Shown: positions 4,815-50,818 of the stretch, in pieces
How positions within the stretch are numbered: the first letter of the stretch is position 1
Layout of the letters: every line of letters begins with the position of its first letter
From: Candidatus Undinarchaeota archaeon
GTDB lineage: Archaea; Undinarchaeota; Undinarchaeia; Undinarchaeales; UBA543
Assembly (NCBI GenBank): GCA_964567575.1
Contig: CAZMMZ010000002.1
Coordinates: 14,254-78,253 of the forward strand
DNA: 64,000 nucleotides
Direction: 5' to 3'
The notes under the pieces: generated by a model
Databases searched by the model: none
What the model saw: the letters and a program-made list of their open reading frames with translations, nothing else
What the model was told of the DNA's origin: nothing
Made by a program: the position numbers and the translations under genes

Positions 4815-6118
4815 GTTGCAATCCCAACAATAAATACAATGAATAGTATCAGTGGGATAAAGTATCGTATCAAATAAATTATCCAATGTGGCATATTCAG
4901 TTTTGTGTGTTTGTTTACAGCAGTAATGAATTTCTTTGAACTGAAGAACCAAGAAACTGTTATTGTGAATATTAGTGCGACAATTGGTAGTGTTAAAGTT
5001 CCAATTACATAATCAATTCCATCTAAGAATGGTTTTCCAAATAATGAAAGTTTCACAGCACTGTAACTCAAAGCTGATGGAAGACCAACAAGCAGTGCAA
5101 TACCATAAACAATTTTATTTGCGCGACGTCGTTTCATACCATATTCATCAATTAAAGAAGATACCCAAGTTTCTCCAATTGAAATTGCTGAAGTTATTCC
5201 AGCGAGAAGGAGAAGTAGGAAAAAGATTGCTCCGAAAACTCTACCAAAAGGAATCAGTGCAAAAACTTTTGGAAGCGTGATGAAAGCTAATTCCGGTCCT
5301 TGTCCAGGATTCATTCCAAATGCAAAAACAAGTGGGAAAATAATAAGACCTGCTAAAATTGAAATTAGAGTATCTGTTATAGTTATTGTAGCTGCAGCAA
5401 GTGGGATGTCTGTTTTTCTGTCTGTATAACTTGCATAAGTGAGAAGCAAACCAAATCCTACACCAACAGAGAAAAATGCTTGACTGCATGCGAAGATCCA
5501 AATCTTTGGATCAGCAAGAACAGAAAAGTTTGGAGTTAAGAAAAACTTCACACCTTCCATTGCTCCTGGAAGTGAGACTGCGCGAACTATCATAACAATG
5601 AAGAAAAGAAACATGAGCGGCATTGTGTATTTGCACAGTTTTTCAATTCCTCTTTTTATTCCTAAAGAATCAATAAAGAATAGTATTACAATTACTAGTA
5701 AAAAGAAAACCAGTGGAAGGTAAGAGCCACTAAAGCTTGCAAAACCTTGGTATCCTGTAAATGAAAATACAAAGTAAGCGAATATCCAACCAACAATTAC
5801 AATGTAATAACTGAGAATCGCCATCAAAATTATCAGGAAAAACCATCCAAGGTATTTTGTTCTTGCTCCAAGTTTTTTAAAGAATGATAAGATTGATGTT
5901 TGGAATGTCCATCCTGCAGATAATTCTAATAATACAATTGGAAATGCTAAGAGAATAATTGCAATAATATATGGAATCAGGAATGCTCCGCCACCATTTT
6001 TCCCAGCAATATATGGGAAACGCCAGATATTTCCAATCCCCACTGCAGAGCCAACTGCTGCAAGTATAAATCCGAGTTTTGACCAGTGCTCACGAGGTTT
6101 CTTCAGGAGCTTTTTCAT
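4811..6118 (-). CDS. Sodium:neurotransmitter symporter family (NSS/SNF) transporter
   Basis: 435 aa, polytopic. The NSS signature GNIWRFPYIAGKNGGGAFLIPY is near the N-terminus. Confidence 0.85.
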   Translation of the reverse strand: MKKLLKKPREHWSKLGFILAAVGSAVGIGNIWRFPYIAGKNGGGAFLIPYIIAIILLAFPIVLLELSAGWTFQTSILSFFKKLGARTKYLGWFFLIILMAILSYYIVIVGWIFAYFVFSFTGYQGFASFSGSYLPLVFFLLVIVILFFIDSLGIKRGIEKLCKYTMPLMFLFFIVMIVRAVSLPGAMEGVKFFLTPNFSVLADPKIWIFACSQAFFSVGVGFGLLLTYASYTDRKTDIPLAAATITITDTLISILAGLIIFPLVFAFGMNPGQGPELAFITLPKVFALIPFGRVFGAIFFLLLLLAGITSAISIGETWVSSLIDEYGMKRRRANKIVYGIALLVGLPSALSYSAVKLSLFGKPFLDGIDYVIGTLTLPIVALIFTITVSWFFSSKKFITAVNKHTKLNMPHWIIYLIRYFIPLILFIVFIVGIAT

Positions 6119-40759: not shown

Positions 40760-41123
40760 TCAATATTGTTCTTTCAAGTGGTAGTAATACCACAAAACCA
40801 AGGAAGTCGCCTTTGGATACGTTTCCATCTATAATAGATGTGAATCGAGCGTATTCTATCTTCCGGTCCATGTCTAATGGTTTTGGTTCTGTTTCACTTA
40901 CTCCAGATACATTTCCATTTTTGTTCATCCTATATAGGGATGTAAAAACCATATGGTTTGCAGGGATGTGTATGTTTTTCACTTTTATGGATTGGCATAT
41001 CCCTTTCTTAATGATATGATCTTCATCTGCTATTAGATGTTCGACCTTGCCATGGTCTTGTTTAATACCCACAGCTTGTCTTTTACTTTTAAAATCCTGC
41101 CAAAATTTATCAATTGTTGTCAT
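40752..41123 (-). CDS. Hypothetical protein (possible PUA/ASCH-like small beta-barrel)
   Basis: 123 aa. It overlaps the end of atpD by 14 nt. Confidence 0.3.
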   Translation of the reverse strand: MTTIDKFWQDFKSKRQAVGIKQDHGKVEHLIADEDHIIKKGICQSIKVKNIHIPANHMVFTSLYRMNKNGNVSGVSETEPKPLDMDRKIEYARFTSIIDGNVSKGDFLGFVVLLPLERTILNE

Positions 41124-41775
41124 TTAATGATACCTCTTTTTTCTTTGCCAATTTTCCCTTGATTTTCTTTAATCGTGAAAAGTCTTCTCGTTCCATTTCA
41201 TCTAAACGCATTCTAATGAATTTGCTAGTATTTTTCATTCGCGGAATCACAATATATTCAAGAGCATTAACACGGCGTTTTGTTTTTTCAACTTCACTTG
41301 CAAGAAGTTCAATTGTTTTTTCAATTTCTGCCATTTGCACAACTAACTTGAGTGCGTTTTCAAATTTGCCAGCTGCTTCATCCAAACTAGCTGAAGTTGT
41401 TATTGGGCTGTATCCTCGGTTTGAAAGATTTCTATCTTCTTCATCTAATTTGATTTCCGGAACCTTAATCCCAATAATGTTTCTTGTTTGGAATTCAGCA
41501 TTTGCAATTTCACGAACAGCCATTGCTGCGCTTGTAACTTCCATTGGTCCCATTATTGATTTTGCTTTAACAAGATCGCCGTAAGCATTTTTGAAATATT
41601 TTTCAGCATCATCACGGAGCGTAGCACCTTTTTTAATAATATCAAGAAATTTCATGATAAGCGCATCTCGCTTTTCTTTCAGAAGCTTGTATCCTTTCTC
41701 CGCTAGCTTCGTCTTTTTCTTGAGCTGTATCAGCTCCATTCTTGTCGGGTTTATCCCCGCAATGAGGTCTGCCAT
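41110..41775 (-). CDS. atpD: A-type ATP synthase subunit D
   Basis: 221 aa coiled-coil protein. It is the last gene of the H-I-K-E-C-F-A-B-D operon. Confidence 0.85.
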   Translation of the reverse strand: MADLIAGINPTRMELIQLKKKTKLAEKGYKLLKEKRDALIMKFLDIIKKGATLRDDAEKYFKNAYGDLVKAKSIMGPMEVTSAAMAVREIANAEFQTRNIIGIKVPEIKLDEEDRNLSNRGYSPITTSASLDEAAGKFENALKLVVQMAEIEKTIELLASEVEKTKRRVNALEYIVIPRMKNTSKFIRMRLDEMEREDFSRLKKIKGKLAKKKEVSLNDNN

Positions 41776-41783
41776 TTATTATT

Positions 41784-43166
41784 TTACTCCGGTTTCAAAT
41801 ATTTCTCAATGTGTTCTGGTTTGAGACGTTTCAATTCTTCTCTTGGTAAGATGTTAAACATGTCCCAACACAAGTCGAGTGTTTGTTCAATTGTCCTGTT
41901 CTCATCTTTACCTTGAGTAACGAATCTCTTTTCAAACTCTTGAGCGAATTTCAAGAAAGATTTATCACGTTCTGAAAGTGCTTCTTCTCCAATAACAGCA
42001 ACAAGATCCTGCAAACTTCTTCCTTCTGCATATGCAGAATAAGCCTGGTTTGAAACACTAGAATGATCCTCTCTTGTTTTGCCTGGTCCAATACCCTTGT
42101 TCATCAAACGAGACAAACAAGGAAGTACATCAACAGGTGGGAATACGCCTTTCTTATGCAATTCTCTTGAAAGAACAATCTGTCCCTCTGTAATGTATCC
42201 AGTTAAATCAGGAATTGGGTGTGTTATATCATCCTGAGGCATGGAAAGAATTGGGAGCTGAGTGATTGAACCTTTTTGTCCCTCAATTTTTCCAGCACGT
42301 TCATACAAACATGCCAAATCAGTGTACATGTATCCTGGATAACCACGTCTTCCTGGAACTTCTTCCCGAGCTGCTGAAATTTCACGAAGAGCTTCACAAT
42401 AGTTTGTCATGTCAGTTAGAATAACAAGAACATGCATTCCTTTTTCAAACGCAAGATACTCAGCTGCTGTAAGTGCCGCTCTTGGAGTAATAATACGTTC
42501 AATTGTTGGATCGTTTGCCAAGTTGACAAACATAACTACATTTTCAAGAGCTCCTGATTTCTCAAAATCCTCTTTGAAAAATGCTGCTTCTTCGAAAGTA
42601 ATTCCCATAGCTGCGAAAATAACAGCGAAGTTTTCCTTTGATCCAAGAACTTTTGCTTGTCGCGCAATCTGAGCAGCAAGCTCGTTGTGCGGCAAACCAG
42701 ATCCTGAGAAAATAGGAAGTTTCTGTCCTCGAACCAATGTGTTCATTCCATCAATTGTTGAAACACCAGTTTGAATGAAATCCTCTGGGTATTCTCGAGA
42801 TGTTGGATTAATTGGCGCACCGTTAATGTCAATGAATTTCTCAGCAACAAGTTTTGGGCCATTGTCTAGTGGTTCTCCTCGAGAGTTGAACACACGACCA
42901 AGCATGTCTTCAGCTACTGGGAGCATAACTCCTTTTCCAGTGAATCGAGTGCTTGTTTTGTCAGTGTCAAGACTTCGTGTTCCTTCAAAAACCTGAACAA
43001 TTGCAGTTGAACCTGCAACTTCAAGAACCTGTCCAAAACGCTTTTCCTTTTCAGGTGATTTAATTTCAACAAGTTCATTGTAAGTTACTCCTTCAACGCC
43101 TTCAACAACAATTAAAGGTCCACTAACTTCTTTTACTGTAGTATATTCTTTGTTTTTGTCTGTCAT
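41784..43166 (-). CDS. atpB: A-type ATP synthase subunit B (regulatory)
   Basis: 460 aa with A/V-type B-subunit sequence features. Confidence 0.9.
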
Positions 43167-44980
43167 TATTCTTGCACCCCCGTTACAATTTTTTCACGCG
43201 TCATCAAGTTGTTAATACCTTCTTCAAACTTGTGTTTGATGTCTCTGATTTTTGCGCTAACTTTTGATTCTTCAAGATATTTAACAGCTGCAATAGCTTC
43301 AATAACAGGGATTTTTGAAATACCTGTATTAGCAATTCCTGCTTCTACTGCTTCCTGTGCTTTATGATGTTTCCAAAGAATAAGTTCAAGTAAATCAAAT
43401 TGTTTCTTTGGTGAAGTGTAGGTATCAACCTCATCATACGCATTTTGCTGCAAGAAATCCTCTCTCAAGGATCTTGCGGTTTCAAGAAGAAGTTTGTCTT
43501 TTTCTGGTAATGCATCTGGTCCAACCAGTCTGACAATTTCTTGAAGTTCAGCTTCTCTTTGCAAAATAGTCATTGCTTCTGTTTTTGCTTCGAGCCAGTT
43601 TCCAACTTCTTTATTCCACCAGCTAGCTACATTGTCATTATACAAGGAATATGATGTAAGCCAGTTGATACTTGGGAAGTGACGTTTGTTTGCAAGATCT
43701 GCATCAAGCGCCCAGAAAACTTTACAAATACGTAGTGTATTTTGTGTAACTGGTTCTGAGAAATCCCCTCCAGGAGGACTGACAGCTCCAATAACAGAAA
43801 CTGAGCCTTTCTTTTCTTCTGTACCAAGTGTTTGAACAACACCAGCACGTTCATAGAATTGAGCAATTCTTGGTGCGAGGTAGGCTGGATAACCTTCCTC
43901 ACCAGGCATCTCTTCAAGACGTGAACTGATTTCTCTCATAGCTTCTGCCCAACGGGATGTTGAGTCAGCCATGAGCGCAACATTGTAACCCATGTCTCGG
44001 TAATACTCAGCAATTGTAATACCTGTGTAAATTGAAGCTTCACGAGCTGCTACAGGCATGTTTGAAGTGTTTGCAATAAGTACAGTTCTTTCAAGAAGTG
44101 CTTTTCCAGTTCTTGGATCTTTCAAGTGTGGGAATTCTTTTAATACATCAGTCATTTCATTTCCACGCTCACCACATCCAATGTAGATAATAATATCTGC
44201 ATCAGACCACTTTGCAAGTTGTTGCTGCATGACAGTTTTTCCAGCACCGAAAGGTCCTGGGATTGAACTTGCTCCGCCTTTAGCAACTGGGAAGAAAGTG
44301 TCAACAATTCTTTGTCCAGTAATCAATGGGATTGTTGGTTTGAATTTTTCAGTATATGGTCTTGGAATACGAACTGGCCATTTCTGTGCCATCTGAACTG
44401 CTTTTCCACCAATCTCAGCAATAGTTGTATGAACTGTGTATTTTCCTTCGCTAACAATTGAAGTAATTTCTCCTTTCATTTTTGGAGGTACCATAACTTT
44501 GTGTTCAACAACTTCAGATTCTTTGACAATACCAAGAACGTCTCCACCAACTACTTTTGCACCTTTCTTAGCTACTGGTTTAAAATCCCAAGTCTTTTTT
44601 GTATCAAGAGTTGGAACGTCAATACCACGTGTGATGAAAGTACCAGCTTTCTTTTTGATATTCTCTAAAGGTCTGGCTATCCCATCATAGGTAGTTCCCA
44701 TTAAACCTGGTCCAAGTTCGACAGAGAGAGGCATGCCTGTGTTTTCTACAGGTTGCCCTGGTCCGATTCCTGCAGTCTCCTCATAAACCTGAATTGTGGC
44801 TGTGTCACCATTGAGCTGAATGACCTCTCCTAGAAGGCCTTCTTCTCCGACTTTGACAACGTCGTACATCTTAGAACCTTTCATGTTGTCTGCAACAATG
44901 ACTGGTCCCGCTATTCGTGTAATCTTTCCTTTTATCACTTTACTGTTCCTCCGTTTTCTTTGAAGTAATATCAATGCCAA
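43166..44980 (-). CDS. atpA: A-type ATP synthase subunit A (catalytic)
   Basis: 604 aa with a P-loop GPFGAGKT, the non-homologous region and a DSTSRWAEA segment. Confidence 0.9.
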
Positions 44981-45269
44981 CCGCCTTGCGTATCATTTCT
45001 TGGATTTCTTTTTTTGCATGTCCTGTAGTGCCTGTTTTATCAGGGACTTCTATCACCACTGGGTGCGGTTTGCTTCTGAGTTTTCGAATCTGTTCATCTG
45101 CATAACTTGCATGATTCTCTGAAATTATAATAATGTCATATTCTTTCTGAAGTAGTTCTTCCAAAACTTGAGGAGTATCATTGATTTTATCAACACGAGC
45201 AACTGCTGTAACTCCAGCAAGTCTGAAACCAGTTGTCATATCTTTATCGCCTATCACACAAATGTTCAT
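44940..45269 (-). CDS. atpF: A-type ATP synthase subunit F
   Basis: 109 aa. The translation is [20 protein letters not shown]... Confidence 0.8.
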
Positions 45270-46420
45270 GCTGAAACACCTCCAGTTTCTGGATCTATTT
45301 TATTGGTACTGAAATTTGCAGCAATTCTGATTTTCTTTGCATCTCTTTCTTTTCCTGTAATCATATTCAAAGCAGGTCCAATTCCTAATCCATATTTTAT
45401 TGATAATTGTTTGACAGTTTTCTCATAATATTCATCAATTGCTTTTTCTATTTGATAAAGAGATCCTGTTTCTTTGAAGCTTGTTGAAACTTCTGATAAA
45501 ACGTCTGAGTAAGGTGTTCCCTCAAGTTGTGATAAAATTTCGTCGACTGTTTCTGCTTTTGCAATTGCTTTAAGTTTTTCTTGTGTAAATCCATAAGAAG
45601 CATCAATAAGGAAGTTGTCTATGTTGTCAATTTTTCCTCCACTGCTTCTAAGTCTGAGCATTGTTTTCAAATTGAGAATATCTATTTTTGTTCCAAACAT
45701 AATTGTTACTGCAACCATGTTCTTGTCTTTTGAAATTGCTATTTTTTTATGAGCTTTTTCATAAACATATTTGTCAATTGCCATTTCTAAAGGAATTAAA
45801 TTCTTTTGTTCCTGAACTTTTGGCATAGCTGCGGATACGATTTTTCCATACTCTGTTGTTTCTAATTCAGAAGTTGCTTCTTCAATTGTTTTTGATTCAA
45901 CTAATGTTTTCAAAACATGTTCTTTTAATGTTCCAATTTGATGTATTAATTCAGCACGTTTTTCTATTGGAGTTCCATTTTGTATGGATCTGAATACCAT
46001 TTTTATATTTTTAGCATCGTAAATCTTCAGAAGATCTTTTATTACATCCTTCATTTCTCCTGGTACAGTTCTTGTAACTTTTCCATAAATTTCAGCGGTG
46101 TGTTGATTAAGTGCTTTTTCAAGATCTTCTTCTGAATTTGGATTTTCCATCTTTGTTAAATAAGGACCATAATCTGTGTTTTCAAGAGTGCTAATGCAAT
46201 CGATTTGTGTTTTGCTATTTTTTAATTCTTCAATTTTTTGTTTTTTTAGAAGGCCAGCTTCCATTGCACGTATTTTTGCATTTGTATACATGTATGGAGC
46301 AAGGTCTACAATATTCATAATAACTGGAAGTATTAGCACTAAGAATCCTGCAACAGCTATAGCGACAATGATTGCCACAACCGGTGCGGATAAGACTAAT
46401 GTCTCCAGTGAAAAGTTCAT
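45266..46420 (-). CDS. atpC: A-type ATP synthase subunit C
   Basis: 384 aa helical protein in the expected operon position. Confidence 0.8.
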   Translation of the reverse strand: MNFSLETLVLSAPVVAIIVAIAVAGFLVLILPVIMNIVDLAPYMYTNAKIRAMEAGLLKKQKIEELKNSKTQIDCISTLENTDYGPYLTKMENPNSEEDLEKALNQHTAEIYGKVTRTVPGEMKDVIKDLLKIYDAKNIKMVFRSIQNGTPIEKRAELIHQIGTLKEHVLKTLVESKTIEEATSELETTEYGKIVSAAMPKVQEQKNLIPLEMAIDKYVYEKAHKKIAISKDKNMVAVTIMFGTKIDILNLKTMLRLRSSGGKIDNIDNFLIDASYGFTQEKLKAIAKAETVDEILSQLEGTPYSDVLSEVSTSFKETGSLYQIEKAIDEYYEKTVKQLSIKYGLGIGPALNMITGKERDAKKIRIAANFSTNKIDPETGGVSA

Positions 46421-47034
46421 TATTTATTTTTGAACAGAATTGCTGCTACGTCCCCCCTTATTTTTTCAGAATCTCTTTCCATGATTCTCTCAATACTATT
46501 ATCAATTTTCAAATTTCCATCTGCACTTTCAATTATAACTCCGCCTGCAATTTCTACTGTTTTCCCAAGTTTTGATTTAAGTTCTTGTGCTAATTCTTTT
46601 CCATACGCTTCATTTTCTTGATTAAAACATAGTTTGCTGTTTTCTCCTATTGCATCTATACCTTCTTTTGCTAGAATTTTTAGCGCGGTTTTATATCTGC
46701 CTGTTCCTTGTTTTGCCATTCTATCCAATTGTGTTTCAGCTTTTTCAATTGCTGAAGTTATTGTATTGTCTCTGCTTCTGAGGTGAATGTTGTGTGCTTC
46801 AAGATTTGTTGAAGAAAGTATTCTTTGCTGTTCTCGGTCTGCATTCTTTTTTCCAGTTTCTTTTATTACAGATTTTTCAGCATTGATTTTTTCTTTTTCA
46901 GTTTTTCTAAGCTCAGTTGTTTTCTCTTTTGCATCGCTAATAATTTTATTAGCTTCTGTTATTGCTTCTTTCATTATTTTCTGATTAATTTTTGTTATTC
47001 CTTCCATTTTATTCACCTCAACCGAATAGGCCAA
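46420..47034 (-). CDS. atpE: A-type ATP synthase subunit E
   Basis: 204 aa, with coiled coils and a globular C-terminus, in the expected position. Confidence 0.75.
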   Translation of the reverse strand: MAYSVEVNKMEGITKINQKIMKEAITEANKIISDAKEKTTELRKTEKEKINAEKSVIKETGKKNADREQQRILSSTNLEAHNIHLRSRDNTITSAIEKAETQLDRMAKQGTGRYKTALKILAKEGIDAIGENSKLCFNQENEAYGKELAQELKSKLGKTVEIAGGVIIESADGNLKIDNSIERIMERDSEKIRGDVAAILFKNK

Positions 47035-48478
47035 CTCCTAACATGATTAATATTGCTATAAGCAAACCAAAGATAGCATATGTTTCTGGAATAACTGAAA
47101 GCACAAGGCCTTTTCCAGTTGCTTCTTTGTTTTTCACTGTTGCTCCAATTGCTCCACCAGCAACTATTCCTTGTCCAATAGCTGATAATCCAGCAAATCC
47201 TACTGCACATCCTGCTGCTATTGATGCTAATCCTGCTACGCTTGTTAGTGATCCTGCTTTTCCAGCTCCAACAAGACCTACTGCTGCAAGTACGAGAATT
47301 GCGACAATGAATCCGTAAAGTGCTTGTGTTTCTGGGAGTACAGAGAAAACCATACTCTTACCAAACACTTCAGGCTTTTCAGAAACTGCTCCAACACCTG
47401 CTGCTGCTGCGATTCCTTGTCCAATAGCTGATAGTCCTGCTACTCCGACTGCGATACCTGCACCAACACCTGCTAGTCCAATTGTTTCTGTTATTCCTTG
47501 ACCACCACCTGATCCAAGTATTCCTGCACCAAGTAATATTAAAATAGCAATAAGCATTCCGTAAATTGCTTGTGTTTCTGGTAGTACTGAGAAAACCATT
47601 CCTTTTCCCATCATCTTATCGTCTTCAGCAACTGTACTAACTGCAGCTCCAGCTGCAATTCCTTGTCCAATAGCTGATAATCCTGCTACACCAACTGCAA
47701 GACCTGCTCCAACAGCTGCTATTCCTGCACCCATTTTTAATGATCCTACAATTGTTCCTCCAATCATTCCTGTTGAAACAAGAATTAGGATTGCGACAAT
47801 GAATCCGTAAAGTGCCTGTGTTTCTGGAAGTACTGAGAAAACCATTCCTTTTCCAAACATGTCTTCTTTTTCAGAAACTGCTCCAATAGCTGAACTTGCT
47901 GCGATTCCCTGTCCAAGACCTGAAAGTCCTGCTACACCAACTGCGATTCCAGCACCAAGTGCTGCGAGTCCAATTGGTAATGGGAGTTTTGCAGATGTTG
48001 TTCCAATAATTCCTGCACCAAGTAAAATTAAAACAGAAATAAGCATTCCATAAATTGCTTGTGTTTCTGGTAATACTGAGAAAACCATTCCTTTTCCCAT
48101 CATCTTATCATTTTCAGCAACTGCGCCGATTGCAGATCCAGAAGTTATTCCTTGTCCAATAGCTGAAAGTCCTGCGAAACCAACAGCAATACCTGCTCCA
48201 AGACATGCAATTGCAGTACCGATTGAAATATCGGCTGTGGCAGTTCCTACAATTCCTGTGCCCATTAAAATAAGTATAGCAATAAGGAAGCCGTAAATTC
48301 CCTGAGTTTGTGGAAGCGCTTGGAAAATAAGTGCTGTTGAGAATTTTTCTGGATCTTCTGTAATAGCTCCAGCTCCAGCAGCTCCTGCGATACCTGCTCC
48401 AATTCCACTAGCTAGTCCTGCTACTCCGACTGCAATTCCAGCTCCTATTGCAGCAATTGCAATTTCTGCAGTTGCCAT
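47018..48478 (-). CDS. atpK: A-type ATP synthase proteolipid (K/c subunit) with six fused hairpins (about 12 TM)
   Basis: 486 aa made of six ~81-aa repeats, each GAGIAVG...GQGIAA...hairpin. The helix-2 ion-site motif is PQTQ in repeat 1, PETQ in repeats 2-5 and PETY in repeat 6. Confidence 0.85.
   Translation of the reverse strand: MATAEIAIAAIGAGIAVGVAGLASGIGAGIAGAAGAGAITEDPEKFSTALIFQALPQTQGIYGFLIAILILMGTGIVGTATADISIGTAIACLGAGIAVGFAGLSAIGQGITSGSAIGAVAENDKMMGKGMVFSVLPETQAIYGMLISVLILLGAGIIGTTSAKLPLPIGLAALGAGIAVGVAGLSGLGQGIAASSAIGAVSEKEDMFGKGMVFSVLPETQALYGFIVAILILVSTGMIGGTIVGSLKMGAGIAAVGAGLAVGVAGLSAIGQGIAAGAAVSTVAEDDKMMGKGMVFSVLPETQAIYGMLIAILILLGAGILGSGGGQGITETIGLAGVGAGIAVGVAGLSAIGQGIAAAAGVGAVSEKPEVFGKSMVFSVLPETQALYGFIVAILVLAAVGLVGAGKAGSLTSVAGLASIAAGCAVGFAGLSAIGQGIVAGGAIGATVKNKEATGKGLVLSVIPETYAIFGLLIAILIMLGVGLFG
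47018..48478. repeat. Intragenic tandem repeat of six ~243-bp units within atpK; copies 486 bp apart are near-identical
   Basis: The anchor gtttctgg recurs near 47089, 47332, 47575, 47822 and 48062. The 47575 and 48062 blocks match over about 50 nt with 2-3 mismatches. Confidence 0.8.
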
Positions 48479-48531: not shown

Positions 48532-50493
48532 TTATTTTTCCTCTATTGTAGTATAATCTCGACTTACTGAAAACGGTGAATATTTTCTTCCACCGCCACT
48601 GTAGAATTTACTAAAGAATTCTACATATTGTAAACGAAGTCCGTGAACAAAAGCACCGAGTGCATTCATAGCAAAACTGAATGCATGACCTACTGAAAAT
48701 ATGATTATTGCAAGAAGTATTCCAAGGAATGGAACTCCTGAGACCATTCCTGCAAGTAAATTCATTGTCATTGCAATACCACCTGTTGCAAGACATAAAG
48801 CAAGAAGACGTGTGAAAGACATAACATCTCCAAAGAATCCTGTTACATCGAATAATCCTATAACTCCTTTAAATCTGATAAGTATTACTAATGAAAGTCC
48901 TGCAAGTACGTATGCTACATATTTGAGTCCACCTGCTAATTCTATTCCTAGCATTGGACCAAGAAGAATGAATGCTGCAGCTTGTAGGGAGAACCAAATT
49001 ATCTGTCCGTGTAACATTTCAAGTTTCTTTCCCTGTTTCCAATTATTAATTGCTCCAAGAATAAGTCCAAGATTCAAATGAGCAATTCCAACAAATAATG
49101 AAACTTTTAGAATAACAAGTGGGTTTGTTAATGGATCAACCCATGGGGCAAGGTTTGCAGGTTCTAATCCCCAAATATATTTTGGAAGATCTCCCAGATA
49201 ACTTCCTGTAAGAACCCCAAAGAACATTGTTGAAAGACCAACTGCAGAAACAATTGTTCCAACTTCTTTCATACTTGCATTGTGTTTTCCAAGTTTTACT
49301 AGTAGGAAAGCCCCTCCTATAAATAAAAGAAGTCCATAAACAAAATCAGTAAGCATCAACCCTGCGTAAAGAATCAAAAGTGGTGTTATAAGTGTTGTTG
49401 GATCAATTTCATTATATTTTGGAAGAGAATACATCTCTGTCATCATTTCGAATGGCTTTGCAATCCATTTATTTTTCAAAAGTACTGGCACATCATCGTC
49501 TTCAGTTGGTTCTTCTATTTTTATATGGCAACAATTATGTGAGGATTTTTGAATAGATTCTGTGATTTTTTTTGCATCTTTTTTTGGAACCCATCCATGC
49601 ATTATGAATGTTTTTTTAGTTCCTGCCATTTTTCCCAGAGCATCTATTCGTTCTTTCTCAATAACAAGTTGTTCTCGTATTGTGCTAAGATTTAAACTCC
49701 ATTTAGTGTTGAGTTTTTTCAGTTTCTCTTTTTTATTTTTAATATCCTCTTCTAATTCTTTTATTTTATCTTCAATACTTGTTTTTGTTTCTTTAACAGA
49801 AGGAATATCAAATTCTTCAAAGCCATAAGTTCTTAGAACAAGATTTGTTTTATCTTTATCATCAAGCATTACAGTTATTGTAGCAATACTTGTTTCTTGA
49901 TCTAATTCTTCAATAATTATATGAGCGTCAGGTGTTTCGTGTGTAACATCTTTTACAAATTCTTCCTTTTTTTCATTTTGAATTTTTCCAGCAAAAGTAT
50001 AAACACGACTTGAATAACCAACGTTGTGATAATCAACATTTATTTTTTCTAACAGTTCTTTTATATTTTTTAAATTTTTGTGTTGCTGGATATCGTTTTC
50101 TAAGCTTTCAATTTTTGAACTAATTGCTCCAACTTTAATATCAAGTTCTTTTATGATTTCACTATTTTCTTTAATAACTGCGTTTGGATCATTGTTTATG
50201 ACTTTTGTTTTCTTTTCAATAGCTTCACTTCCAAACATTCCGCTTTTCTGTTCTTCTGAACTTTTAAGAATATCATTAATCCTGTCTAATTTTATTAAAA
50301 GTGGTGCTAATTCTGTTATTTCTGATGTGTGTGCAGTTCCTTCAAGAAAACTTTTCCACTCTGGATGTTCAAGAAATTCGCTTGCATCTTCAAGTTGCAT
50401 TGCACTAGTTTCATGAAGTGCCCTAATAACATCGTCTCTGTACTTGTTCAAGGCGATGAACTTGAACTTTTGCATGCGTGCTGGTATAAACAT
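48532..50493 (-). CDS. atpI: A-type ATP synthase subunit I (a-subunit homologue)
   Basis: 653 aa with a hydrophilic coiled-coil N-terminal half and a polytopic C-terminal half. Confidence 0.85.
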   Translation of the reverse strand: MFIPARMQKFKFIALNKYRDDVIRALHETSAMQLEDASEFLEHPEWKSFLEGTAHTSEITELAPLLIKLDRINDILKSSEEQKSGMFGSEAIEKKTKVINNDPNAVIKENSEIIKELDIKVGAISSKIESLENDIQQHKNLKNIKELLEKINVDYHNVGYSSRVYTFAGKIQNEKKEEFVKDVTHETPDAHIIIEELDQETSIATITVMLDDKDKTNLVLRTYGFEEFDIPSVKETKTSIEDKIKELEEDIKNKKEKLKKLNTKWSLNLSTIREQLVIEKERIDALGKMAGTKKTFIMHGWVPKKDAKKITESIQKSSHNCCHIKIEEPTEDDDVPVLLKNKWIAKPFEMMTEMYSLPKYNEIDPTTLITPLLILYAGLMLTDFVYGLLLFIGGAFLLVKLGKHNASMKEVGTIVSAVGLSTMFFGVLTGSYLGDLPKYIWGLEPANLAPWVDPLTNPLVILKVSLFVGIAHLNLGLILGAINNWKQGKKLEMLHGQIIWFSLQAAAFILLGPMLGIELAGGLKYVAYVLAGLSLVILIRFKGVIGLFDVTGFFGDVMSFTRLLALCLATGGIAMTMNLLAGMVSGVPFLGILLAIIIFSVGHAFSFAMNALGAFVHGLRLQYVEFFSKFYSGGGRKYSPFSVSRDYTTIEEK

Positions 50494-50500
50494 TTTACAG

Positions 50501-50818
50501 TTACTTCTCTTGTAATATGTGTTTTATCACAGTTTCAACAGCTTTTTCAATATGTGCTTCTGATTTTTTCTCATCACTTTCAATATCTTTTTTTATTTTT
50601 TGAAGTGAGTGTGAAGATTCTTTTTCAGTACTATCTTTAGTTGTAGCTAATAATTCTTCTGCTTCATCTTGTGCTTTTTTCAAAATTAGTTCTTTTTCTT
50701 TCTGAACATCTTTGGATGCATTGTCCAAGATCTTCTCAGCCTCTTTATGGGCTTTTTCCACAAGTGCTTCCGCCTTGTGTTCTGCTTCTTTTATTTCAAC
50801 AAGTGCTTGTTTTGGCAT
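50501..50818 (-). CDS. atpH: A-type ATP synthase subunit H
   Basis: 105 aa charged helical protein. It is the first gene of the operon. Confidence 0.7.
   Translation of the reverse strand: MPKQALVEIKEAEHKAEALVEKAHKEAEKILDNASKDVQKEKELILKKAQDEAEELLATTKDSTEKESSHSLQKIKKDIESDEKKSEAHIEKAVETVIKHILQEK

Follow-up and report, generated by a model that had tools for sequence, protein, structure and literature searches.

Within the window, which is the whole stretch of 64,000 nucleotides (nt) analysed here and which derives from a marine archaeon of the Undinarchaeales, a lineage of the DPANN archaea (kingdom Nanobdellati), one gene and only one encodes the rotor (proteolipid) subunit K of an A-type ATP synthase (atpK/ahaK, 47018..48478, minus strand). 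Our analysis indicates that this protein is built of six fused helical hairpins which, judged by their ligand residues, would provide five complete Na+-type ion sites, all of them intramolecular, the sole blind interface being the one between chains. The hairpin architecture and the ligand pattern, as described from the sequence, we regard as virtually certain, whereas the favoured reading as a whole, in which six hairpins and five Na+-type sites go together with a duplicated two-hairpin 'a-b' module and a ring closed by two copies of K (K2), is one that we hold to be reasonably probable. The samples that gave this organism come from TARA and other marine metagenomes, and a protein identical to the window K is recorded in a 'Candidatus Undinarchaeales archaeon' metagenome-assembled genome (MAG; GCA_030751255.1).

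Hairpins and ion sites of the K subunit

The K open reading frame (ORF) begins with ATG, ends with a stop codon at 47018-47020 and spans 1461 nt, encoding 486 amino acids (aa). Its product is matched in six stretches by Pfam PF00137 (ATP-synt_C; E = 1.6e-96), and its best NCBIfam matches are V-type ATP synthase subunit K models, far above their cut-offs, the top one of which (NF004913) has 220 positions, about the length of a three-hairpin K. When the borders were set by anchoring on the helix-2 motif, the six hairpins measured 81, 81, 82, 82, 82 and 78 aa, bearing out the description in an earlier note on this DNA of a six-hairpin fused K of 486 aa made of units of ~81 aa. An AlphaFold2 model of the protein, with a predicted local distance difference test score (pLDDT) of 91.5 and a predicted template modelling score (pTM) of 0.91, displays 12 transmembrane helices in 22 DSSP segments, some of the helices being kinked. 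The best solved relative, both by sequence (E = 2e-19) and by fold, is NtpK (2BL2), the subunit with two hairpins and one Na+ site of the V-type Na+-ATPase of Enterococcus hirae, chain 2BL2_A being the top Foldseek match with a template modelling (TM) score of 0.88, a root mean square deviation of 2.5 Å and 37% identity in a comparison which takes single chains and is silent on ring size. These data clearly show that the window protein is a bona fide K/c proteolipid of an A/V-type ATPase, the helical-hairpin fold of which is supported at the level of structure prediction.

The ligand positions were read from an alignment of the hairpins of 120 homologues to a hairpin hidden Markov model (hmmalign), using five columns per hairpin, namely that of the Gln in helix 1 and those of the Glu, Thr, Gln and Tyr in helix 2. 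For the window protein these columns read A-Q-T-Q-Y in hairpin 1, Q-E-T-Q-Y in hairpins 2-5 and Q-E-T-Y-F in hairpin 6. Hairpin 1 (48236..48478, aa 1-81; this and all the following hairpins on the minus strand) is 'donor-only': the helix-1 Gln is replaced by A28 (48395-48397) and the carboxylate by Q57 (48308-48310), while T58, Q59 and Y62 are kept. Hairpins 2 and 3 are complete and of 'a' and 'b' type respectively, the former (47993..48235, aa 82-162) with Q109, E138, T139, Q140 and Y143 and the latter (47747..47992, aa 163-244) with Q190, E219, T220, Q221 and Y224. Each of them has a complete paralogue of its own type, hairpin 2 in hairpin 4 (47501..47746, aa 245-326; Q272, E301, T302, Q303 and Y306) and hairpin 3 in hairpin 5 (47255..47500, aa 327-408; Q354, E383, T384, Q385 and Y388). 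The terminal hairpin 6 (47021..47254, aa 409-486) is 'acceptor-only', keeping Q436 and E465 and having T466, Y467 and F470 at the donor positions instead of T-Q..Y. The helix-2 motifs given in the earlier note (PQTQ in hairpin 1, PETQ in hairpins 2-5 and PETY in hairpin 6) were thus found again, as was its count of five carboxylates to 12 helices per chain; it had recorded neither the absence of the helix-1 Gln from hairpin 1, a residue present in the other five hairpins, nor the F470 of hairpin 6 at a position where Tyr is conserved.

The ProAD rule for a Na+ site combines [Q/E]..E in one hairpin with [S/T][S/T/Q]xxY in the previous hairpin (PMC11738941), and this motif (ProAD/Mulkidjanian 2008) is present at five sites of the window protein, sites 2-6. 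Each ion site would lie between consecutive hairpins, with hairpin i giving the Gln of helix 1 and the Glu of helix 2, and hairpin i-1 giving Thr, Gln and Tyr from its own helix 2. Because hairpins 1-5 have intact T-Q-x-x-Y donors and hairpins 2-6 have intact Q...E acceptors, all five of the predicted sites would be intramolecular. At the remaining interface, where hairpin 6 would meet hairpin 1 of another chain, both partners have lost residues, the positions being taken by Y467 and F470 in hairpin 6 and by A28 and Q57 in hairpin 1, and no ion would be carried there.

In NtpK, the Na+ ligands include E139, Q110 and T64, and the ion is held inside the four-helix bundle of a single chain (PMC2359735). 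Aligned with NtpK (2BL2), the window residues T58, Q59 and Y62 fall on T64, Q65 and Y68, and Q109 and E138 fall on Q110 and E139, the assignment of NtpK Q65 and Y68 as ligands resting on the ProAD motif rule and the alignment and not on PMC2359735. The likeness extends to both ends of the chain. As in NtpK, whose first hairpin reads P-G-T64-Q65-G-L-Y68, hairpin 1 of the window protein is without a carboxylate and keeps T-Q..Y; as in the last hairpin of NtpK (E139-T-Y-A-I-L), hairpin 6 (ETYAIF) keeps Q and E and is without the donor Gln and Tyr; and in both proteins the Na+ site would be placed between consecutive hairpins of one chain. Unlike NtpK, however, the window protein has four complete hairpins inserted between these NtpK-type ends, giving five sites per six hairpins as against one per two, and it has Gln57 where NtpK has Gly; the NtpK ring, moreover, is a K10 assembly of 20 hairpins. 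A three-hairpin representative of the family (P0130) reads VQTQY QETQY QETFF, its first hairpin being blind and its last having no donors. The triplicated proteolipid of M. jannaschii reportedly has three hairpins and two carboxylates (Ruppert et al. 1999), and the window subunit, with six and five, would share this arrangement of n hairpins and n-1 carboxylates, extending to n = 6 the scheme of n hairpins and n-1 sites seen in E. hirae NtpK and M. jannaschii. The same proteolipid is mentioned in PMC2359735; our full-text literature search found no text describing its blind hairpin.

The first site had been called 'degenerate' in the earlier note, a term that these data do not sustain. When 35 six-hairpin proteins with 50-91% identity to the window K, ranging from Undinarchaeales to Methanomicrobiales, were aligned, every ligand position, including Q57, T58, Q59 and Y62, proved to be invariant in 35/35, and Q57 is therefore, as far as sequence conservation can tell, a matter of conserved design and not of decay. 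The partner residues in hairpin 6 are lost in step with it, as expected of a blind interface of the NtpK type. Among 606 internal hairpin pairs from the 120 homologues, both halves of the site were intact in 574 and both were lost in 28, single losses amounting to four (donor only) and none (acceptor only), and at the last-to-first pair both halves were lost in 106 of 113 proteins, although it must be held against these co-loss counts that they are phylogenetically non-independent and inflated by shared ancestry. The internal double losses differ by lineage (QETQM/QQTQY, QETHS/QQTQY, QETQN/LETQY and QETPT/LETQY, the slash separating the two hairpins). In addition, clear positional orthologues of the first and last hairpins, but not of the internal ones, are present in every lineage.

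On the strength of these ligands we consider Na+ to be fairly probable as the coupling ion, with the reservation that a Na+ motif predicts ion specificity and does not prove it. Alternatively, the sites may carry protons, or both ions, and the enzyme may run mainly as an ATP-driven pump in a reduced symbiont; predictions from motifs are imperfect, the energy metabolism of DPANN archaea is uncertain, and some archaeal enzymes with Na+ motifs use both ions. However, all five sites of the window protein possess the complete Na+ ligand set of the published rule and the organism is marine, and we therefore regard this alternative as doubtful.

Hairpin counts in the family and the size of the ring

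A scan of GTDB species representatives gave 448 loci with K relatives, the best 79 of which were analysed and yielded 71 complete K ORFs. Six hairpins were found at 57 of these loci, 12 at eight, 13 at three (all sites active, Methanopyri type), four at one and five at two, whereas none of the 71 complete ORFs had 7-11; the count is unreliable in both 'complete' five-hairpin genes, which contain long exact repeats (101 and 310 nt). The six-hairpin form is present in cultured members of Methanocalculus, Methanogenium, Methanoculleus, Methanofollis and Methanolinea, and also in Thermoplasmata, DHVE2, Hydrothermarchaeota and Undinarchaeota. We also searched 1.84 billion 50%-identity representatives with a hairpin profile, and among the 150 best-scoring proteins listed the K-family members had 2, 3, 4, 6 or 12 hairpins, save P0127 and P0132, which look truncated; no protein of any family among these 150 had more than 15. 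Apparent exceptions to the series 3, 4, 6 and 12 were discounted where they proved to be truncations at contig edges (P0008 and P0016), deletions of a longer gene (L004 and P0003) or genes whose long exact repeats leave the copy number uncertain (L082, L084, L094, L015 and L016), and the nine-hairpin P0002, P0006 and P0012, the ten-hairpin P0007 and the seven-hairpin P0018 were judged from motif patterns only. The reliable hairpin counts in the K family are 3, 4, 6 and 12.

The complete 12-hairpin K genes (L017 1739-4672, L019, L022, L025, L040, L048 and P0121) encode proteins of 966-1190 aa with one to three blind interfaces, and genes of this length sit in an I-K-E/C context. These proteins, of which L017 is from Undinarchaeota and L019, L022, L025 and L040 are from Thermoplasmata, share their end hairpins and their internal a/b modules with the window K, from which they differ in being of double length with 9-11 sites per chain. 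That of the Undinarchaeota MAG (L017), 65% identical to the window protein, is arranged as H1-(ab)x5-H12, where H denotes a hairpin, whereas L019 and L022 each join two six-hairpin units head to tail and retain both blind interfaces. As the halves of the latter two are only 66-77% identical in nucleotides, the fusion is old. Other routes to 12 hairpins are 6+3+3 (L016 and L040) and 1+11 (L015 and L025), and in six of the eight 12-hairpin genes the exact repeats do not exceed 71 nt. Such subunits are presumably, to judge by their sequence, single-chain rotors. Lolkema and Boekema (2003) deduced that the 13-hairpin K of M. kandleri forms a rotor as a monomer, and the window K resembles it in having many fused hairpins and complete Na+ ligand sets. 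Unlike the M. kandleri-type proteins (L080, L083 and L087), however, which have 13 active hairpins and no specialised ends, the window K, with six hairpins and one blind interface, would make up half a ring at most, and it is not a monomeric rotor of that type.

The earlier note had argued that five carboxylates per 12 helices would alter either the ion-to-ATP ratio or the number of K copies, and one or the other must indeed be affected. Two copies of K would close a ring of 12 hairpins (24 helices) with ten sites and two blind positions, and from such a K2 ring we infer 10 ions per 3 ATP, i.e. 3.33 ions per ATP. A 12-hairpin ring is suggested because the counts are 3, 4, 6 and 12 and because the fusions (6+6 and 6+3+3) stop at 12, and solved V/A rings of the T. 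thermophilus type contain 12 K chains per entry. We lean slightly towards this K2, 12-hairpin ring. Several observations weigh against it. The E. hirae ring is K10 (10 chains per PDB entry, 20 hairpins), and V/A-type rings are thus not always of 12; P. furiosus has a c10 ring of two-hairpin subunits; the best PDB matches of the window K are two-hairpin chains only; a 24-hairpin ring (K4) fits the same divisibility; and a seven-hairpin (4+3) gene occurs in two assemblies, albeit with exact repeats of 83-101 nt that make its count ambiguous.

It is accordingly conceivable that the subunit is as described and the ring larger, with three copies, which would make 18 hairpins and 15 sites at 5 ions per ATP, or four, which would make 24 hairpins and 20 sites at 6.7 ions per ATP, since 24 is also divisible by 3, 4, 6 and 12 and since large V/A-type rings do exist, as in E. 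hirae and in P. furiosus. A ring of 18 hairpins, however, could not be tiled by the closely related 12- or 4-hairpin Undinarchaeota proteins, which are of the same hairpin types at 65-79% identity, and would need a different packing; a ring of 24 would exceed any known rotor ring, and the absence of any fused protein with more than 15 hairpins among the 150 best-scoring ones listed, together with the fusions that stop at 12, argues against it. A larger ring is on balance unlikely.

Should the 12-hairpin ring be correct, it may be a constant of the archaeal Na+-type A-ATPases, tiled by chains of 3, 4, 6 or 12 hairpins with one blind interface per chain, so that the length of the chain tunes the gear ratio, a proposal for and against which we find the evidence evenly poised. 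Tiling by 3, 4, 6 and 12 would give 8, 9, 10 and 11 sites, or 2.67, 3.0, 3.33 and 3.67 ions per ATP; lineages would shift this ratio by duplicating or fusing hairpin modules, and the window enzyme would be the K2, ten-site member of the series. Undinarchaeota alone have 4-, 6- and 12-hairpin forms made from the same a-b module.

History of the modules and the repeat count

A repeat of hairpin length is present in the DNA of the K gene, with a spacing between hairpin copies of 243-246 nt, and Tandem Repeats Finder reported periods of 246 (69-72% matches, 3.6-4.1 copies) and 489 (82% matches, 1.8 copies); the 243-bp periodicity of the earlier note is therefore right in kind, and these are the exact figures. 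Its near-identical blocks 486 bp apart were not recovered as such: the spacing is 489 nt, the best pair of blocks (47513-47606 vs 48002-48095) is 93% identical over 94 nt, and the whole hairpins are similar only, with nucleotide identities of 80-81% for H2/H4 and 75-76% for H3/H5. The longest exact internal repeat is of 36 nt, with one copy in hairpin 2 (48074..48109, minus strand) and the other 489 nt away in hairpin 4 (47585..47620, minus strand), inside the loop/helix-2 block which, as set out below, appears to have been converted.

The paralogous pairs H2/H4 and H3/H5, and the four-hairpin relatives, which are arranged as H1-a-b-H4, suggest that an internal a-b module was duplicated in tandem, from H1-(ab)-H6 to H1-(ab)(ab)-H6, and that the duplicated modules have since been partly homogenised by gene conversion. 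We compared the window gene with that of a relative (L002) whose K is 91% identical in protein and whose four-fold sites are only 47-64% identical to those of the window, i.e. nearly saturated. Over the variable segments (codons 1-12 and 31-42), hairpin 2 of the window is 82-89% identical to hairpin 2 of L002 as against 55-69% to hairpin 4 of its own gene, and because it lies nearer to its orthologue than to its paralogue, the duplication must be older than the split between the two organisms. The reverse was found in the loop/helix-2 segment (codons 43-76), where H2 and H4 of the window are 94% identical to each other as against 77-86% to their orthologues; paralogues are thus closer than orthologues here, which is a signature of gene conversion. 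Fisher tests on the variable and the loop/helix-2 regions gave p = 0.003 and 0.002. Codon bias probably raises the baseline of synonymous similarity, but it was rejected as the sole cause of the similarity between H2 and H4, since four-fold sites were identical at 34/35 positions (97%) in this pair as against 74/103 (72%) in the other internal pairs of the gene (p = 8e-4). An old duplication followed by local gene conversion is, on these sequence comparisons, likely.

The earlier note had instead read the gene as the product of a recent duplication of a two-hairpin unit combined with a decaying site in hairpin 1. That a unit of two hairpins was duplicated (H2H3 to H4H5) holds good, and the identities of H2 and H4, over whole hairpins and at four-fold sites, together with the 36-nt exact repeat and the 93%-identical block, would be expected of a recent event; the event nevertheless predates the split from a relative with nearly saturated four-fold sites, the high similarity is confined to codons 43-76 while the variable segments side with the orthologue, and local similarity of the same kind recurs inside L002, whose own H2 and H4 are 87% identical in those codons. 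As for decay, no variation was seen in Q57 or in the rest of the blind interface all the way from Undinarchaeales to Methanomicrobiales. We consider this combination improbable.

That six hairpins are real in this organism is in our view very likely. The suspicion that the count is an assembly artefact, the true gene having 12 hairpins (collapsed) or four (spuriously expanded), draws on the fact that collapse is demonstrably common in the K family and that a gene of the form H1-(ab)n-H6 would collapse to exactly the window form, but it is highly improbable given that the 1461-nt gene is free of any difference in seven contigs from seven samples and independent assemblies made with different assemblers (metaSPAdes-type and MEGAHIT k141), that 36 nt is the greatest length of exact repeat within it, that the DNA of the relatives at 91%, 88% and 75% protein identity has diverged and yet encodes, in every one of them, six hairpins with the position-specific residues, and that cultured Methanomicrobiales carry six-hairpin K genes on long contigs, e.g. 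of 2.38 Mb and 2.17 Mb. To be set against this is that all of the supporting assemblies are of short reads.

The proneness to recombination or collapse which the earlier note ascribed to the locus applies to the family and not to the window copy. In a sister lineage, two loci of one strain (L001 and L004, K gene at 6001) were assembled with six and five hairpins respectively, and their 6-kb flanks are 100% identical, the sole difference being a clean deletion of 246 nt that falls at a 32-nt exact repeat. Likewise, the eight-hairpin P0003 (L096) equals the twelve-hairpin P0121 minus 324 aa (four hairpins) and is otherwise 100% identical to it, again as one strain assembled in two ways, with a clean deletion at an exact repeat here too, the P0003 contig having a coverage of 2.9x. 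Either the assemblies collapsed or the K genes truly underwent unequal recombination to give these 6/5 and 12/8 differences. Several K genes of relatives, in addition, end at contig edges. As a practical warning, K genes are often collapsed or broken in short-read metagenomes, and hairpin counts taken from MAGs need checking.

Operon context, related proteins and meaning of the finding

The K gene lies between those for subunits I and E in a complete A-type ATPase operon on the minus strand with the order H-I-K-E-C-F-A-B-D, an order shared by the relatives of this locus. The first gene, atpH (50501..50818; peripheral-stalk subunit H), has weak matches to NCBIfam NF006256 and TIGR02926 and a position shared with related operons. 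It is followed by atpI (48532..50493; NCBIfam V-type subunit I, E = 8.5e-181, and Pfam PF01496), encoding the a-type subunit of the stator, partner of the K ring, and, beyond K, by atpE (46420..47034; NCBIfam subunit E), atpC (45266..46420; TIGR02923 AhaC, score above cut-off), the product of which caps the K ring, and atpF (44940..45269; NCBIfam subunit F). The catalytic subunit gene atpA (43166..44980; TIGR01043, score above cut-off), atpB (41784..43166; Pfam ATP-synt_ab and related domains) and atpD for the central stalk (41110..41775; Pfam PF01813) complete the operon, all on the minus strand. The listed ORF of atpA has a TTG start and a 41-nt overlap with atpF, and the gene encodes 575-594 aa in relatives; this start probably overshoots, the true one being an internal codon. 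Directly after atpD is a DUF22 gene (PF01629; 40752-41123, minus strand), which has the same neighbour in the Undinarchaeales operons L002, L003 and L012 and is thus conserved in this place. The subunit I gene encodes 653 aa in the window, whereas assemblies of the same strain with an identical K gene give 585 aa or a split into 122 + 445 aa (L005 1111-2868; L006 1004-2947), and a frameshift, or else variation in the sequence of this stator subunit, may lie behind these length differences.

The surveys also brought up relatives of other kinds. Six- and twelve-hairpin K proteins of Thermoplasmata (L018-L050, e.g. L019 1064-4450 and L022 821-4180; P0009, P0010, P0025 and P0036-P0064) have an N-terminal extension of ~100-310 aa with a signal-peptide-like start and Pfam PKD domains (PF18911, PF00801 and PF22352), by which, as predicted from sequence, the rotating ring would carry a covalently linked domain on the outside of the cell. 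Five proteolipids of four to five hairpins and 316-435 aa (P0194, P0204, P0243, P0252 and P0268) have Glu in the first hairpin only and Gln in the others, as in EETSF AQTPF GQTPF NQTPF NQSTY; 8-10 helices share a single carboxylate here, which puts these proteins at the opposite end of the range of site dilution. In other proteolipid lineages, P0125 (1139 aa) has 15 fused hairpins, all with Glu in a LAEAL-type motif without Na+ ligands, and P0183 (968 aa) has 13, Trp-rich and with an [IV]ES motif. Finally, a MAG labelled 'Halanaerobiaceae bacterium' (L021, PWFW01000126.1) contains a Thermoplasmata-type K gene of at least 10 hairpins at a contig edge, and this label is probably a case of binning contamination.

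A recent paper from a leading laboratory lists the hairpin numbers of archaeal c/K subunits as 1, 2, 3 or 13 only (PMC9171764), and ProAD groups subunits by hairpin number and gives logos for one and two hairpins only (PMC11738941). Within the literature library searched in full text, no paper was found to describe K subunits of six or twelve hairpins, and public records of six-hairpin K sequences are annotated simply as subunit K. The six-hairpin, five-site K is nonetheless real and widespread, and absent from the hairpin numbers listed in the field; it is the dominant form in many lineages, including the cultivable Methanomicrobiales, with 4- and 12-hairpin forms alongside it. The window K is ordinary within its own family, and its interest comes from the family pattern, which makes rotor gearing testable. 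The ion cost of an ATP, and therefore the lowest membrane potential at which ATP can be synthesized, is determined by how many ion sites the rotor carries per turn, and this threshold is a central question for anaerobes short of energy and for DPANN archaea and other reduced symbionts. The long-standing idea of a fixed ring size with a varied number of active sites can now be tested directly in cultured organisms.

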